A stretch of 64,000 nucleotides of DNA, from positions 41,983 through 105,982 of the forward strand of contig QBML01000010.1 in the NCBI GenBank assembly GCA_003242085.1, given 5' to 3'. Position 1 is the stretch's first letter, and every line of letters starts with the position of its first letter. The notes below the pieces were generated by a model, which saw only the letters and a program-made list of their open reading frames with translations, was not told where the DNA came from and did no database searches. A program made the position numbers and the translations under genes. Source of the DNA: Pseudanabaena frigida. Its GTDB lineage: Bacteria; Cyanobacteriota; Cyanobacteriia; Pseudanabaenales; Pseudanabaenaceae. Positions 49,699 through 55,672 of the stretch are shown one piece after another.

Positions 49699-52600
49699 AT
49701 GGCAAAAGTTCAGATCCAGAAACTGCTTGACTTTACATTGCAAATTCGTCATGCCACTAATGGAGATGATGAAATCGTAGGGACTGGGTTTATTGTGTCG
49801 GACAGTGGGTTAGTAGTGACGTGCGCTCATGTTGTAAAAGCTGCTGCTGGGAGTGTTTACCAAGGTGTCGAAGTAGGAGCCTATTTCACACCAGCACGTC
49901 AAAAATGGCAAGCAAGGGTGATCGGATGTTTTAAAGACTGCGATGATGATGTCGTGATGCTACAACTTGAGGATGAGAATAGCTCATTTATATTGCCTAG
50001 TAATATGCATCCTGCGCGAATTGCAGGAGCGGATGAGTCAGAAGGGAATCCCTTTCTTAGCTATGGCTATAAAAGGTTAGAGAAATATAGAGCAGGGAGG
50101 GCTGAGGGTAAGATTTTAGGTGAAGTTGAATCACCTGATAACGTTGTTTTGCAACACAATCCGATTCAGTTAAAGTCGAGTGAAATCAATGGTGGGATGA
50201 GTGGTGCGGCGGTACTAGATGTAGAGCGCGATCGCGTGGTGGGAATTATCTCGGAAACTTGGTTCCCAGATGAGACGGGGAAAGATCGGGATACGGCTTG
50301 GGCGGTGAATGTGCGGGTGTTGGCTTTGCCACCGATCGCATTGTCGATAAGTAATGAGAATGGGGTAACGGAGACAGATATAGTACCGATGGAGACAGCA
50401 CCAATGACGGATAATATTGCGATGTCTACCCTCAAGCAAAAACTGGTAAATGCGCCGCCGATCTTTGATGAATGGGTCGGACGGGTGGAATTGTTGCAAG
50501 CTTTGGATGAGGATTGGGGCGATCCTGCGCGGCGGATTGTGGAATTGATTGGGTTTGGGGGTGAGGGTAAGAGTAGTGTGGCGCGGCGGTGGGTGGCGAA
50601 TGTGTTGTCATCAAATCGCAAACCGCTTGCGGCTTTCTGGTGGGGATTTTATGAGAATGGCGGTATTGATGAGTTTTTCGAGGCGTTGGCTGAGTTTCTG
50701 GTTGGGGATGTGATTGATATCAGCGAATACAAGTCAGCGAGTGAAAAGATTCGGTTGATTAATTCGGTTTTGCGGAAGGGTGGGCGCTATCTGTTTGTGT
50801 TGGATGGTTTGGAGGTGTTGCAGCATGAGAGCGGTGATGATTATGGCTTGCTCAAAAGTCCCGATCTGCGGGAGTGGTTGCGAACTTTGGCAAAGGGAGA
50901 GAATGAGGCATTTTGTGTGGTGACGAGTCGTGCGCCGTTGTTCGATCTGATCGATCTGACGACGTTTGTGCATCGGGATGTGGAACGGTTGACGGATGGG
51001 GAGGGGTGTGAGTTATTGCAAAAGTTGGGTGTGCGGGGTGAGGTGGCGGCGCTAAGGCAGGTGGTGCGCGATTGGGATGGTTATGCGTTGGTGTTGAGTT
51101 TGTTGGGAACTTATCTGGTGGAGAGGTATGCGGGGGATGTAGCGAAGATTGAAGAGATTGAGGCTCCATTGGTGCAGGAGGCGAGGTATGACCGTGTGCG
51201 GCGAGTGCTAAGGCGCTATGATGAGCATTTGTCTGAGGCGGAACGGGAGGTGATGGAATGTTTTAGTGCGTTCCGTTTGCCAGTGAAGGAGGCGGCGTTG
51301 GCGGATTTAGGGGGATCAAGTGGGATTTTGAATCAGTTAGTGAACTATCGGATGTTGCGCTACGATAACCGATTGCAACACTATACGACGCATCCGTTGA
51401 TTAGGGCGCATTATTTAGAACGGCTGAAAGAGAAGCCCATTGAGGTAGTGCAGGCACTCCATAATCGGATTAAGAGTTGGTATCTCGACATTGCGGGAGA
51501 AATGCCCGAAGTGCCAACCCTCGAACAACTTGCGCCGTTGATTGAAGCGGTACATCATGCTTGTCAGGCGGGTGAGTATGATGAGGCGAATGATATTCGC
51601 AGGGAGCGGATTTATCAGGGAAATCAACGTGTCCTTCCCAATAAACTCGGTGCTTGGGAAACGAATCTTGCCATCATGCAAGAGTTTTTCCCACAGGGCG
51701 ACACATCCCAAAATCCGCAGGTAAGCCAACCGAGAACTAAAGGTTTTGTTCTGAATGAGATCGCCCTCTGCCTCATGTGTTTGGGACGCTTGCACGAAAC
51801 ACCTCCCTTTTACGAACGCGGCACAAAAATCGATCTCGCTCAATCCGACTGGCGCAATGCCAGTGTTGGCTACCGAAACCTAGCAGATTTGTATGCCAAT
51901 CTCGGAGATCTGGCGGCGAGTGCTAAGTCGGCGCGTGAGGCGATCGCCCTAAGCGATCGCGCCGAGGATAAAAATTACAAACGTAATTCACTTGCCTATC
52001 TCGCTTATGCAGAATTTTTGCAAGGAGATAGAACTACTGCGGGTGAGGCATTTCGGCAAGCTGAGATATTGGAATGTAAGATTTATCCTTCTAGTCAATA
52101 TCTGAACAGCATCGGAGGAATTTTTCATGCGGAATACTTGCTAAGGTATGGTGAAGTGGACTATGGGCGGCGAGTCACAGAGGTAAATCTCAAAGTTTGC
52201 GAAGAGAATCACTTTGTAAAATCTGTTAGCCAGTGTCATCGCGTTCTCGGAGATCTTGGCATCGATCCGCAAGTTCATTATGCCGAAGCCCTCAAAATTG
52301 CCCGTAGTATTTCCTTCCGTCCCGCTCTCATTGAAGCCTTACTAGGCTATGGTCGCTGGTTGGTTGGTCTAGGACTAATCCCAATTTCGCAAGACGTGGA
52401 GCAAGCAATTTCCTATTCCCCAACAGAGCAATGCTATATGCTTTCCCTCCGCACCAATGAGCATCCTATCGATGAGAACGATCTGGCACTAGCCCGACAA
52501 TATCTTGACGAAGCCCTGACCTATGCCACTACCAGCGGTTATCGCATTTATGAAACCGATCTTCGCATTGCCCTAGCATGGCTCCATTGGCGCGAAGGCG

Positions 52601-52728
52601 ATCTCATTACCGCCAGACGTGAAGCCGACAGAGCCAAACGCGCTAGTGAGGAGATGGGATATTTCTGGGGTCAAGTTGATGCGAGCAACTTAATTACGAA
52701 TTACGAATTACGAATTACGAGGTGTTGA
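49699..52728 (+). CDS. Trypsin-like protease - STAND (NB-ARC-like) NTPase - TPR protein
   Basis: Triad motifs VTCAHVV, DDDVVML and GGMSGAAV; Walker A GFGGEGKS; Walker B LFVLDGLE; HPLIR winged helix; TPR-like C-terminus. Confidence 0.9.
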   Translation: MAKVQIQKLLDFTLQIRHATNGDDEIVGTGFIVSDSGLVVTCAHVVKAAAGSVYQGVEVGAYFTPARQKWQARVIGCFKDCDDDVVMLQLEDENSSFILPSNMHPARIAGADESEGNPFLSYGYKRLEKYRAGRAEGKILGEVESPDNVVLQHNPIQLKSSEINGGMSGAAVLDVERDRVVGIISETWFPDETGKDRDTAWAVNVRVLALPPIALSISNENGVTETDIVPMETAPMTDNIAMSTLKQKLVNAPPIFDEWVGRVELLQALDEDWGDPARRIVELIGFGGEGKSSVARRWVANVLSSNRKPLAAFWWGFYENGGIDEFFEALAEFLVGDVIDISEYKSASEKIRLINSVLRKGGRYLFVLDGLEVLQHESGDDYGLLKSPDLREWLRTLAKGENEAFCVVTSRAPLFDLIDLTTFVHRDVERLTDGEGCELLQKLGVRGEVAALRQVVRDWDGYALVLSLLGTYLVERYAGDVAKIEEIEAPLVQEARYDRVRRVLRRYDEHLSEAEREVMECFSAFRLPVKEAALADLGGSSGILNQLVNYRMLRYDNRLQHYTTHPLIRAHYLERLKEKPIEVVQALHNRIKSWYLDIAGEMPEVPTLEQLAPLIEAVHHACQAGEYDEANDIRRERIYQGNQRVLPNKLGAWETNLAIMQEFFPQGDTSQNPQVSQPRTKGFVLNEIALCLMCLGRLHETPPFYERGTKIDLAQSDWRNASVGYRNLADLYANLGDLAASAKSAREAIALSDRAEDKNYKRNSLAYLAYAEFLQGDRTTAGEAFRQAEILECKIYPSSQYLNSIGGIFHAEYLLRYGEVDYGRRVTEVNLKVCEENHFVKSVSQCHRVLGDLGIDPQVHYAEALKIARSISFRPALIEALLGYGRWLVGLGLIPISQDVEQAISYSPTEQCYMLSLRTNEHPIDENDLALARQYLDEALTYATTSGYRIYETDLRIALAWLHWREGDLITARREADRAKRASEEMGYFWGQVDASNLITNYELRITRC
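52692..52720 (+). repeat. Heptamer tandem array (AATTACG)x4 + A
   Basis: Four exact copies at 52692, 52699, 52706 and 52713. Confidence 0.97.
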
Positions 52729-52733
52729 TTGCA

Positions 52734-53090
52734 ATGAAAGAAGAAAACATTATCCAGACTAAAAGTTATGCATTTGCTGTGCGTATAGTTAGACTTCATC
52801 AACATCTCGTAAACACAAAAAAAGAATATGTTCTGTCTAAACAAATATTGCGATCGGGAACCAGTATCGGCGCAAATGTTGAAGAGGCGATCAGTGGGCA
52901 GTCAAAAGCTGACTTTATCTCCAAACTATCCATAGCCTACAAAGAAGCCCGTGAAACAAGCTACTGGCTAAGACTATTAAAAGATACCGATTACCTGACC
53001 GAAAAAGAATTTGAAAGCATACATCCCGATGTAGAAGAACTATGTCGGATTATTGGGAGCATACAGAAAAGTGCGAAGGGGAATGAATAA
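52734..53090 (+). CDS. Four helix bundle protein (TIGR02436 / 23S rRNA-IVP / Avd-like family)
   Basis: KSYAFAVRIVRL, LSKQILRSGTSIGANVEEA, SKADFISKLSIAYKEARETSYWLRLL. ATG 52734 preferred. Confidence 0.93.
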   Translation: MKEENIIQTKSYAFAVRIVRLHQHLVNTKKEYVLSKQILRSGTSIGANVEEAISGQSKADFISKLSIAYKEARETSYWLRLLKDTDYLTEKEFESIHPDVEELCRIIGSIQKSAKGNE

Positions 53091-53148
53091 TTACGAATTA
53101 TCAATTACGATTTAAAATTTCGTAATTCGTAATTCGTAATTCGTAATT
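53089..53148. repeat. Heptamer arrays: three forward copies (one variant), then T + (CGTAATT)x4 inverted
   Basis: AATTACG-AATTATC-AATTACG at 53089-53109; inverted copies at 53121, 53128, 53135 and 53142. Confidence 0.95.
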
Positions 53149-53536
53149 TAGATCCCCTCTGAAACTTGAAAACGCAGTTCAAACAAAAAGATAGAGCGAT
53201 TAATGTGTGTTAATGCGTCGTTACGAGTAGATAGTCTTTTGCTGATGCTTATTTGGTTAGTATGTCTGAGGTAATACCATACTTCGCAGTTTTAATATAA
53301 GCTCCTCTCAAGTCCTTTGAAATTGCGGAATTCAAGCGAATTCTCAAATAAATTTTGAGCACCTATGAAAGGACTAAATTGTATATTCTGTTTGATTTCG
53401 TCACAAATATTTACGTTAAAAATCAGCTTTCTTCCTTCTATTTACATACGTATTGTTACTACTATCTGTACATGTATTTCTTTCTGCCGTCTCTATAGAC
53501 TTGAAAAGTTCGTGATTCACATGGGAGGGCTTAATT

Positions 53537-55672
53537 ATGGCAAAGCGATCTTTAAAAGCATCAACATCAGGTGCTAGATTAGCTAAGCAGCAATTTACCT
53601 TTAAAGGTTGGACACAAGAGTATCTAGCGAGTGAAGTAGGTATCAAAACGCGGCAACCGATTTGGCGGTTTTTTGCAGGGCAACCAATTGAACGATATAC
53701 ATTTTTTGAGATTTGTACGGCTTTAGATTTGGAATGGAGAGAGGTTGCCTCCAATGCACCAGCAGAATATATCGATCGCACAGTCGATCGCATTACCAAT
53801 AACACTGAGTTAGAACCAACATCTCTAAAATTAGATGATGTAGTGCAAATGGTGCGATCGCAACGCAAGGATAAAGTTAATCATCAATGTGGCATCTTGC
53901 AACTATTAGATATTGGTCGTCCCGTCGAGCTTGACAAGATCTACATCGATGTAAATGCGATCGAACAAATCCCCAGTCAGCAAGGGATCGAAATCTCCGA
54001 TCTCGATAGTCTAGCGCCCGAAGATATCGATCGCTTCGACCTAGACAAAATCACCGCCAGACAAATCCTCGGTACAGAAGCAGTAGAGAAATATGGCAAC
54101 CTACGAGTACTGGGTAAGACAGGCTCTGGTAAGTCTATATTTCTCAAACATCTGGCAATGCAATGCAATGCTGGAAGGTTTGCTGCAAACCAAGTTCCAA
54201 TGTTTATGACGTTGCGAGATTTTGCCGAAAGTTATAAGTACAACCAGCAGTTACGCTTATTAGAGTTTATCCATCAAGAATTTCTTGAATCAGATATTTC
54301 TCACCCAGAAACCCTTAAGAAACTGCTTCACGAAGGAAGAATATTGTTCTTAATTGATGGCATTGATGAAATTTGCCAAGATGTAAAACTAGAACATAGG
54401 GTTTTAAATGAAGTTCGCCGATTTTGTGAGCGATACCACAAGAATACTTTTGTAACAACCTGTCGGACTGCCTTGCAAAAACTCACCCTGAAAGGCTTTA
54501 CCGATGTCCAAATCACTCCACTTAACGAAGACCAAATCAGCGCGGGAGCCCGAAAATGGTTTGGAGAATTTAGCAAGGCTGATGGCACTAATGGACTAAA
54601 AATTTCATCTCAATTTATGCAAGAGTTGAAATTACCAGAAAATTGGCAATTTCAGTCATTGATGACTACCCCGCTATTTTTGCATCTTGCCTGTTCCATA
54701 TTTCATCGTCAAAAGAAGTTTCCGATTAAAGCGGATTTTTATAAGCAAGGTATGGATTTGCTGGTATGGAAATGGGATGAAGCAAGAGGAATGGATCGGA
54801 ATCAATCATACCCAGGATTTGCATTACCGCAAAAGCTACAGTTGTGGAGTGAAATTGCCTCATTCACCTTTGAAAAAGGGCAATACTTTTTTGAGCAACG
54901 GGTAATTGAGGAACATATCGCTAACTCCGTACAAAATCTTACCGATACTAACTCTGAGCCAGAAGAACTTTACCAAGCGATCGAAGCCGTGTTACGCATG
55001 GTCAAGTCTCAACATCACGGACTTTTAGCTGAGCGGGCAAGGGGTATATTTTCCTTCTCCTATTCCGCCATGCAACAGTATTGTATTGCCCGTAAGATTG
55101 TTGCTGGTCAACATCTCCAACCATCAGGGCAATCTTTGCAGGAACTTGTAACTCATCTTACCGATCCTCGTTGGCATGAAATCTTTTTGCTCACGGCAAG
55201 TATGCTTCACAGTTCCGATGATTTGGTGCAGTTAATGAAACAAGAAATTAATCGCCTCGTTGCTGAATCTCCTTATTTAGAGAACTTTTTGGCTTGGGCA
55301 TACCAAAAATCCCAAAACAATCTAGAAACAAGCCCAGACTCAGGGGAGCGGAAAACTTTACATTCCTGCGATCGATTATCAAATAAAAATCACATGGAAC
55401 CCAACCTTGAGAATTGGAGCAACAATAACTGTATGACTCGGTTATGGCAGTTGCAACAAGCGATCGCCAATCGTGAAAATGTTGATGCCTCCAAACAACA
55501 AGTGTTACAAAGCTTCTATGACGCTAATCAATTGCTGCTTGACTGTCTCAATAGTAGTTGCGAAGTTACATCCAGCATCAGAGAAGAAATAGAAGCAAAC
55601 TTACTGTGTTATAGCTATTGCCGCTCTAGTTACAGCAAATTAAGTTCAAACATGTTACCAATGGAAGTATAA
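53537..55672 (+). CDS. HTH - NACHT NTPase with C-terminal helical domain
   Basis: N-terminal XRE-like HTH (GWTQEYLASEVG..RQPIWRFF); Walker A GKTGSGKS; Walker B FLIDGIDE; TPLFLHLAC; C-terminal FYDANQLLLDCLNS. Confidence 0.88.
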   Translation: MAKRSLKASTSGARLAKQQFTFKGWTQEYLASEVGIKTRQPIWRFFAGQPIERYTFFEICTALDLEWREVASNAPAEYIDRTVDRITNNTELEPTSLKLDDVVQMVRSQRKDKVNHQCGILQLLDIGRPVELDKIYIDVNAIEQIPSQQGIEISDLDSLAPEDIDRFDLDKITARQILGTEAVEKYGNLRVLGKTGSGKSIFLKHLAMQCNAGRFAANQVPMFMTLRDFAESYKYNQQLRLLEFIHQEFLESDISHPETLKKLLHEGRILFLIDGIDEICQDVKLEHRVLNEVRRFCERYHKNTFVTTCRTALQKLTLKGFTDVQITPLNEDQISAGARKWFGEFSKADGTNGLKISSQFMQELKLPENWQFQSLMTTPLFLHLACSIFHRQKKFPIKADFYKQGMDLLVWKWDEARGMDRNQSYPGFALPQKLQLWSEIASFTFEKGQYFFEQRVIEEHIANSVQNLTDTNSEPEELYQAIEAVLRMVKSQHHGLLAERARGIFSFSYSAMQQYCIARKIVAGQHLQPSGQSLQELVTHLTDPRWHEIFLLTASMLHSSDDLVQLMKQEINRLVAESPYLENFLAWAYQKSQNNLETSPDSGERKTLHSCDRLSNKNHMEPNLENWSNNNCMTRLWQLQQAIANRENVDASKQQVLQSFYDANQLLLDCLNSSCEVTSSIREEIEANLLCYSYCRSSYSKLSSNMLPMEV

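Follow-up and report, generated by a model that had tools for sequence, protein, structure and literature searches.

The window analysed here, 64,000 nucleotides of the cyanobacterium Pseudanabaena frigida (assembly GCA_003242085.1, contig QBML01000010.1, positions 41,983 to 105,982 of the forward strand), carries a small gene for a four-helix-bundle protein that is enclosed by inverted tandem arrays of the heptamer AATTACG. This locus is one copy of a widespread cassette, a promoterless but functional PF05635 gene between inverted arrays of 7-nt units. Comparative sequence analysis establishes that gene and arrays form a conserved package whose two arms co-vary, that filled, empty and inverted alleles exist, and that the protein is under purifying selection. 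How are such arms maintained, and what might they do? We favour the view, with a probability of roughly 0.6, that the heptamer arms are the recombination-active, DNA-level ends of a gene-in-hairpin cassette, on which host recombination or replication does the work.

The cassette and its protein

An earlier note on this DNA had described exact inverted 29-bp arrays bracketing a 118-aa open reading frame (ORF), with a third array at the stop codon, and the sequence bears this out. The array (AATTACG)4+A at 52692-52720 is matched exactly by T+(CGTAATT)4 at 53120-53148, with 399 nt between them, and a degenerate forward array (AATTACG AATTATC AATTACG A, 53089-53110) overlaps the TAA stop at 53088-53090. 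Allowing up to two mismatches, the 21-mer occurs five times in the window, always at the cassette locus, and is absent from 100 dinucleotide shuffles. The terminal arm is able to pair either with the inner arm or with the upstream arm. The cassette is composed of the following features.

52692-52720, + strand: upstream outer arm (AATTACG)4+A, without a stop codon in any of the three frames; reads NYELRIT
52719-52733, + strand: short leader with the Shine-Dalgarno-like GAGGTG (52719-52724), 9 nt 5' of the ATG, recognised from the sequence
52734-53090, + strand: four-helix-bundle gene, 118 aa, PF05635/TIGR02436, recognised by Pfam, TIGR02436 and PDB 2RLD matches
53089-53110, + strand: inner forward arm AATTACG AATTATC AATTACG A, recognised from the sequence
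53111-53119, + strand: hairpin loop TTTAAAATT, akin to the loops (a)gttaaaat(t)t of relatives
53120-53148, + strand: terminal outer arm T+(CGTAATT)4, with TAA in all three frames, recognised from the sequence

Profile searches identify the 118-aa product as a clear member of PF05635 (103.4 bits, E 9.4e-30, cut-off 33.8, residues 4-108 of 118) and of TIGR02436 (114.4 bits, E 2.7e-33, cut-off 24). Its closest solved relative is PDB 2RLD, an uncharacterised protein with five chains (E 5.5e-37 over residues 3-117). Neither profile nor structure-database matches revealed a catalytic motif or a known enzymatic fold, and Pfam matches were limited to PF05635 and a weak PF22296, with no HUH/Y1 transposase. 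PF22296 is a profile for Avd, a protein of diversity-generating retroelements (DGRs), and scores below threshold (26.8 bits, E 8e-6, cut-off 40), as does the Avd equivalog NF033474 (21 bits, E 3e-4, cut-off 80). The 5.39-Mb genome holds no second copy of the gene. Among nine Pseudanabaena copies dN/dS is 0.07 at dS 0.77, the arrays meanwhile being perfect; these substitution rates indicate that the protein is under strong purifying selection.

Inverted heptamer arms accompany the gene family

Are the arms a peculiarity of this genome? When one genome per bacterial species was scanned, more than 570 relatives came to light, and flanks were analysed for the best 80 (60-87% identical). These come from Beta- and Gammaproteobacteria, Kiritimatiellota, Acidobacteriota, Gemmatimonadota, Chloroflexota, Verrucomicrobiota, Planctomycetota, Lentisphaerota, many Bacteroidota, Patescibacteria, Bacillota and Actinomycetota. 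Their genes are preceded by arrays of AATTACG, AATTAAG, AATTAGG or AATTACT, with the reverse complement at or after the stop codon, and many terminate ...AATTCGTAA within the array. Among 79 loci, 69 have the forward word AATTANNAATT at most 100 nt upstream, 70 have its complement at most 100 nt downstream, and 62 have both arms. Elsewhere in those loci (337 kb) the word occurs at a background of 0.02 per 100 nt, so that flank arrays stand at about 40 times background. Complementarity between the two arms of one locus reaches 19.0, compared with 14.5 across loci and 7.4 in shuffled sequence (permutation p <= 2e-4), and a variant unit on one side of a locus recurs on its other side (for example L020, L042, L066 and L085). 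The arms are AT-rich, with a median of 28% GC. They belong to the gene family, not to this one genome.

For cyanobacteria, a sample of 151 genomes gave 25 PF05635 loci that could be used. Here only period 7 is enriched in the flanks (median score 9, versus 3 in controls), other periods in the range 4-12 scoring 3-4, and own-arm complementarity is again above the cross-locus value (19.5 versus 9.25; p <= 2e-4). The unit itself varies: three more distant Pseudanabaena or cyanobacterial copies (36-52% identical) carry hairpins of GGAAAAA/GTAAAAA-type or GAAGAAN-type heptamers, and copies from Nostoc, Anabaena and Dolichospermum, among them plasmid-borne ones, have the following arms in the same layout.

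Nostoc punctiforme pNPUN02: upstream (CAATTCG)4.5, downstream (AATTGCG)4.5
N. punctiforme pNPUN01: upstream (GTCGGAR)4, downstream (TCCGACY)4
N. flagelliforme: upstream (AATTCAA)4, downstream (AATTTTG)4
Dolichospermum: upstream (GTAATTC)4 then (TGGAATT)6, downstream (AATTACG)4
Anabaena cylindrica, between cas2 and cas1: GTAAAAA-type arrays on both sides

The earlier note had proposed that gene and arrays form a single cassette and, as a test, that flanks of the family be checked for enrichment of inverted 7-mer arrays. PF05635 genes of cyanobacteria and of most other phyla are indeed flanked in this way, and these family-wide flanks support the cassette. Phages are not its main carriers: only 2 of 50,697 phage records matched, at 43-47% identity.

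Filled, empty and inverted alleles

Close homologues (at least 88% identical) occur in 8 of 48 Pseudanabaena genomes, in three contexts: 3' of STAND-protease/TPR paralogues (G022, G024, the genome of the window, and two copies in G048), at the end of a gene with a Type I specificity domain, Methylase_S (G005), and between hisI and an MBOAT-like gene (G013, G045, G058). The last of these junctions offers a clean series of alleles. In G053, G050 and G049 it measures 144-172 nt and consists of a hairpin only, (AATTACG)3AATT-aaaatatctc-AATT(CGTAATT)2. In G058 it measures 564 nt and holds the cassette co-directional with hisI, and in G045 and G013 (594-636 nt) the entire inner unit, loops included, is inverted. 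The outer arrays hold the polarity hisI-(AATTACG)n...(CGTAATT)n-MBOAT in all alleles. Compared with that of G058, the hisI flank is 99% identical in G050 and G049, 98% in the inverted G045, 94% in G013 and 83% in G053; the near-identity of G050, G049 and G045 marks the differences as recent events whose breakpoints lie in the arrays.

Several states are also found at the 3' end of the TPR gene. It is array-free in G042 and in G024:C227, carries arrays and a short hairpin without the gene in G052 and G006, is filled by the cassette in the window and in G022, and holds tandem decaying copies in G048:C94; in G024 the upstream array is inverted and there are additional arrays. No precise empty counterpart of the window's own junction was found; downstream of the array-free TPR paralogues the DNA is different.

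A second series of alleles comes from the trpD-trpC junction, which was compared in 61 Tenacibaculum genomes, with 24 loci fetched. Eight of the 24 have a spacer of 9-16 nt and no arrays; one has a 29-nt spacer containing a AATTACGAATTA footprint, one has arrays on both sides and no ORF, and three have a small membrane ORF only. Four of the 24 are filled, the cassette lying directly 3' of trpD (L164, L185) or 3' of the small ORF (L182, L183), and in every case no more than about 12 nt separate the end of the right arm from the trpC ATG. Comparison of array-free with filled sites suggests that the arrays arrive together with the gene, and the alignments indicate that insertion has occurred at more than one position of this junction. 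That cassettes enter only pre-existing hairpins was considered and rejected as a general rule, given the array-free empty sites in Tenacibaculum. Neither in Pseudanabaena nor in Tenacibaculum did filled and empty junctions differ by a clear target duplication; an AATTA microhomology may be present.

The search for an empty site, which the earlier note had advised for close relatives, has yielded empty alleles at hisI-MBOAT-like in Pseudanabaena and, in a second genus, at trpD-trpC in Tenacibaculum. Taken together, these alignments suggest that gain, loss, inversion and tandem duplication of the cassette have had their breakpoints inside the arrays.

Arrays without the gene

The P. frigida genome (5.39 Mb, 67 contigs, 41.8% GC) contains 13 exact heptamer arrays of at least three units, nine of which are AATTACG; with a limit of at least two units, 16 AATTACG arrays are found at about 11 loci. 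Those outside the cassette are mostly hairpins just 3' of stop codons, and no gene fragment was seen beside the genome's other 10 array loci, the only stump being in the window. One such hairpin, in the spacer between rpsK and rpoA, is present in 28 of 29 readable Pseudanabaena junctions, 2-7 nt after the rpsK stop (C44:91519-91578 in the window's own genome; loci L188-L217). It has a 12-bp outer and an 11-bp inner stem with variable loops, and it also occurs in genomes that lack a PF05635 gene and have almost no other arrays. By comparison across the genus the rpsK-rpoA hairpin is old and structurally conserved. Solo hairpins in gene-less genomes indicate that hairpins are old, stable and maintained without the gene.

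Does the protein spread the repeats, as the earlier note had suggested? Evidence for this is correlative: genomes that carry the gene have a median of 46.5 array hits, compared with 2 in those that do not (8 versus 40 genomes; Mann-Whitney p = 3e-5, kinship ignored), and the correlation is weakened by genomes rich in arrays without a PF05635 hit (G050, 66; G060, 34; G018, 26) and by the genus-wide rpsK-rpoA hairpin. The most explicit version of the idea takes REPIN-RAYT systems as its model, in which a single gene is flanked by inverted short repeats that are dispersed as hairpin-forming units, RAYT being an HUH/Y1 transposase (PMC3116915). Here the four-helix-bundle protein would recognise its own heptamer and disperse arrays and hairpins, and the gene with its inverted arrays would be the master locus. 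The resemblance is real, in that a single-copy gene is flanked by inverted copies of a genome-dispersed repeat found at about 11 loci. The array load, the existence of subfamily-specific units within one genus (AATTACG, GGAAAAA/GTAAAAA, GAAG-type), the distant homology to the nucleic-acid-binding DGR protein Avd, and the strong purifying selection all speak for such a role. Unlike RAYT, however, the 118-aa four-helix bundle is no HUH/Y1 transposase and has no catalytic motif or known enzymatic fold. Arrays persist in gene-less genomes, including the rpsK-rpoA hairpin; the correlation within the genus takes no account of phylogeny, and the link between subfamily and unit is explained equally well by co-inheritance. 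We therefore regard dispersal by the protein as unlikely. The narrower proposal that the protein recognises its own arms is made plausible by the conservation of the unit within a subfamily across phyla, by strong purifying selection and by relatedness to Avd, and we consider it a serious possibility, with the odds somewhat against it.

Pairing in RNA or maintenance in DNA

Could the arms be retained for their function in the transcript? The earlier note had proposed two alternative transcript folds. As thermodynamic possibilities both are real: the predicted RNA fold of 52680-53160 pairs the two outer arrays (minimum free energy (MFE) -118.1 kcal/mol, z = -4.1), and the predicted 29-bp duplex (-39.7 kcal/mol) competes with the local hairpin (-22.1 kcal/mol) at pair probabilities of 0.76 versus 0.21. 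There is, however, no sign that selection maintains sense-RNA pairing. Arm mismatches over 90 loci, read on the sense strand, comprise 145 G·U and 145 A·C pairs, and for isolated mismatches the ratios of G·U to A·C are 25/28, 16/22 and 11/17. As G·U is not in excess, homogenisation or maintenance at the DNA level fits better than selection on RNA, and the idea that sense-RNA pairing alone maintains the arms was given up.

These counts also bear on an explanation borrowed from the intervening sequences (IVSs) of 23S rRNA, in which the arm stem, formed in the transcript, would be cut by RNase III to free a cassette RNA, with the local hairpin as a switch. The precedent is close. In the IVS of Coxiella burnetii an S23p ORF, of the same PF05635 family, is surrounded by a 28-bp stem that is cut by RNase III; three tandem GACAGAT heptamers, variable in number between strains, lie upstream of the S23p start, and the first of them is at the RNase III 5' cleavage site (PMC4990558). 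The predicted pairing of the outer arrays is what such a messenger IVS would require, and the structural conservation of the solo hairpin between rpsK and rpoA is in line with it. So is the way in which cassettes are packed, tightly and co-directionally behind the upstream gene and without their own promoter: 65 of 73 loci have a co-directional neighbour upstream (median gap 60 nt) and 49 of 74 have one downstream (median gap 39 nt), and in 52300-53700 of the window neither a promoter-like nor a terminator-like site was predicted on the + strand. Yet the equal numbers of G·U and A·C mismatches argue against it, and in several loci (G024, L078, L022, L017) the upstream array has the same polarity as the downstream one and cannot pair with it. 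Moreover, the gene is antisense to both of its neighbours at hisI-MBOAT-like in G045 and G013, and the unit sequence itself is conserved within a subfamily, beyond what complementarity demands. The messenger-IVS explanation is compatible with DNA-level ends; we hold it possible but rather unlikely. Folding of the arms in the transcript in the manner of an rRNA IVS is nonetheless suggested by the predicted structures, and by analogy to the IVS precedent processing of the arm stem by RNase III is plausible, if only tentatively so.

In the predicted MFE fold the end of the upstream array together with GAGGTG (52713-52729) pairs over about 15 bp with CATCAACATCTCGTAA inside the ORF (52806-52820). 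This predicted pairing could mask the ribosome-binding site; it may also be due to chance, and G022 differs in this stretch.

A proposed mechanism and its weak points

Under the explanation we favour, host recombination or replication acts on the DNA of the arms. The cassette in the window sits directly behind the co-directional STAND-protease gene, whose last codons it has replaced. Mirror-image ends would permit both orientations of the unit, direct repeats flanking the gene would allow its precise loss and leave a gene-less heptamer hairpin, and the arrays would likewise mediate tandem duplication and inversion. Movement would proceed by homology, slippage or hairpin formation on the repeat arms. 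The host machinery is implicated because no dedicated enzyme travels with the cassette: no transposase, integrase or reverse transcriptase (RT) recurs among the neighbours of the 80 loci, and no mobility enzyme lies within about 8 kb of the cassette in the window.

Several points weigh against this proposal. Movement is deduced from comparisons of alleles and was not observed directly, and the mechanism is a default inference, reached where neither a target-site duplication nor an enzyme was found. Among the carrier genomes (8 of 48) only three insertion contexts are seen. For hairpin-only alleles gain and loss are indistinguishable, and their loop, aaaatatctc, is unlike the loops of filled alleles. 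The GC content of the ORF tracks that of the host (slope 0.73, r 0.90; GC3 slope 1.35), so that spread across phyla must be old and residence long; recent cross-phylum transfer was rejected on the same grounds, and the sequences indicate that high identity across phyla is the product of strong constraint and old spread. Finally, given the ancient gene-free rpsK-rpoA hairpin, the arrays may be host cis-elements in which the gene merely nests.

Might the cassette instead be mobilised in trans, its hairpin ends being used by an enzyme of the IS200/IS605 or RAYT type encoded elsewhere, with the gene as cargo? Insertion sequences of the IS200/IS605 group are small elements with hairpin ends that produce no target duplication. 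The cassette shares with them, and with MITEs (miniature transposable elements that have inverted repeats), its small size and its hairpin or inverted ends, and with the IS200/IS605 group also the lack of a clear target duplication; its hairpin-cargo-hairpin layout has no enzyme in cis. It differs from both in that its ends are tandem heptamer arrays and its cargo is one conserved protein family. That one gene family, which is under strong purifying selection, makes up the cargo in every case, and that a cognate enzyme would be needed in every phylum with these arms, makes trans-mobilisation improbable in our judgement. Least credible of all is coincidence, that is, ordinary AATTACG arrays of the short tandemly repeated repetitive (STRR) type falling by chance on both sides of an unrelated small gene. 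Such arrays are old in the genus, and some ten other AATTACG loci in the genome are without the gene. The inverted layout, however, recurs far above background at homologues in Bacteroidota, Proteobacteria, Chloroflexota, Verrucomicrobiota, Patescibacteria and others, and at Tenacibaculum sites otherwise devoid of arrays these accompany the gene; these pan-phylum flanks and the filled and array-free sites refute it.

Relation to known systems

The link to ORF-bearing 23S rRNA IVSs that the earlier note had drawn proves apt, the Coxiella IVS having tandem heptamers next to its stem. As in the IVSs of Leptospira and Coxiella, a PF05635/S23p ORF lies inside the loop of a terminal-inverted-repeat stem, here a predicted one of 29 bp. 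In contrast to these, the cassette is flanked by protein-coding genes and is not in helix 25 or 45 of 23S rRNA; an Rfam scan of 52400-53600 found no rRNA or other family, only sub-threshold hairpin look-alikes. Its arms are long pure heptamer arrays, and filled, empty and inverted alleles are seen. It was long ago proposed that the IVS is a former mobile element whose ORF possibly served mobility (PMC4990558).

Like STRR sequences, the AATTACG arrays consist of tandem 7-nt units that are dispersed, mostly outside genes, in a cyanobacterial genome and common in the genus. The classical STRR1, STRR2 and STRR3 units are CCCCAGT, TTGGTCA and CAACAGT, from all of which AATTACG differs. Heptamer arrays of GGGAATC in Xanthomonas and GGGGA(C/T)T in Anabaena lie mostly between co-directional ORFs, often as convergent inverted pairs; their origin and function were left unexplained, with no associated gene named and no link to a mobile element found (PMC4692102). 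Unlike those arrays, the ones described here are the arms of one specific gene family.

Avd (bAvd) of DGRs, a small helical-bundle protein, is a distant sequence relative of the cassette protein, with scores far below the cut-offs. In contrast to DGRs, the cassette has no RT nearby: no RT domain was found among the ORFs of at least 150 aa scanned about 8 kb either side of the gene, template and variable repeats not having been searched for. The array sequences were not found in the searched literature, and publications there that name PF05635 or TIGR02436 contain nothing on flanking repeats; many subscription papers lie outside that search.

Three loose ends, unexplained and unconnected in the searched literature, meet at this cassette: the function of S23p, the origin of ORF-bearing IVSs and the nature of tandem heptamers. 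The locus and its relatives show the three to belong to one package, which is gained, lost and flipped at its arms with no recognisable mobility enzyme. Speculative, and in our view rather unlikely, is a stronger form of this idea, in which PF05635 proteins and inverted heptamer arrays make up one self-propagating system with subfamily-specific 7-nt units, a common origin with IVS and STRR sequences, and no recombinase of a known class. If true, this gene-in-hairpin would settle in junctions that are transcribed (the spacers of operons, the ends of genes, restriction-modification and cas operons, rRNA helices), gene loss would leave gene-less heptamer hairpins behind, and ORF-bearing rRNA IVSs would share their origin with a large part of the STRR-type heptamers found in cyanobacteria and other bacteria.

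Host genes and neighbours

Around the cassette of the window lie the following features.

49699-52728, + strand: upstream host gene, Avs-like, trypsin-like protease + NACHT/STAND NTPase + TPR; ORF of 1009 aa, Pfam
53149-53193, + strand: stump of a second cassette, with the 5' untranslated region tagatcccctc and about 11 codons, ATG changed to CTG; alignment to the G058 and G024 cassettes
53537-55672, + strand: downstream neighbour, NACHT NTPase with an NCH2 domain; ORF, Pfam; context, outside the cassette

The upstream ORF has the Pfam domains Trypsin_2, NACHT and TPR_MalT, and its weak PADLOC matches (Avs1b, LmuA, RT-Protease) concern the protease domain only. Its final 12 codons (52692-52728) come from the cassette array and leader, which also holds its TGA stop (52726-52728), so that the protein ends ...NL-ITNYELRITRC. 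Array-free paralogues (G042, G024:C227) end ...VDAA(S/A)FFVHID(E/A)PT(T/I). The upstream array has replaced the last codons of the STAND-protease gene, an observation that is new here. For annotators this means that cassettes rewrite the ends of host genes, as in this tail, in the in-frame LRITNYE inserts of GcvP and in a restriction specificity subunit. In gcvP two in-frame (AATTACG)4 arrays lie between the halves of the gene (C55:334406-334476, L218) and encode ...QLRITNYELRVPEDKLRITNYELRVPEN...

The array at the stop codon of the four-helix-bundle gene is present as the earlier note had stated; together with the terminal array it is better seen as the junction hairpin between the cassette and a truncated second copy. 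The stump of this copy possibly extends to about 53210, that is, over about 11-17 codons. Decaying copies in tandem are likewise present in G048:C94, and G022 has a partial duplicate. The cassette sits between two STAND-type genes (protease-NACHT-TPR and NACHT-NCH2), a setting that may represent a defence island.

Across the relatives, neighbouring families are very diverse (93 and 104 Pfam families on the two sides). Recurrent junctions are trpD-trpC, HlyD-AcrB, RlmL and restriction-modification methylases. At L005 (G005:C12), L013-L016 and L018 the host is a restriction-modification gene, for a specificity protein or a methylase, with the cassette at its end. The G005 array reads ITNYELR in frame within the C-terminal helix of the Methylase_S protein, and 3' of the cassette the conserved helix (LPPIEIQKAIVAEIQAEQALV...) is found a second time. 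Restriction-modification host genes also carry the cassette in metagenome-assembled genomes of several phyla.

A further coding array, (AATTACG)3.5, lies near the 3' end of an ORF of at least 896 codons in the P. frigida genome (C41:20926-20950, L219) and reads ...GWVEQLRITNYELGGEQF... On plasmid pANACY.01 of Anabaena cylindrica PCC 7122 (L161), the four-helix-bundle gene is on the strand opposite to cas2 and cas1. A second Pseudanabaena subfamily (L096-L099, in G043, G049, G063 and G053; about 52% identical), with GGAAAAA/GTAAAAA-type hairpins on both sides, has mosaic flanks, upstream types A/A/C/C being joined with downstream types X/B/B/Y, which suggests rearrangements at those cassettes. 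In four cyanobacterial genomes (L130, L131, L134, L136) a cassette with AGTGGAT/CCACTAT-type arms appears, from the translated flanks, to lie inside one and the same host ORF, with host coding sequence on both sides (...FGEPDIVV / ...TIHGVDVFHP...FIDTDY...).

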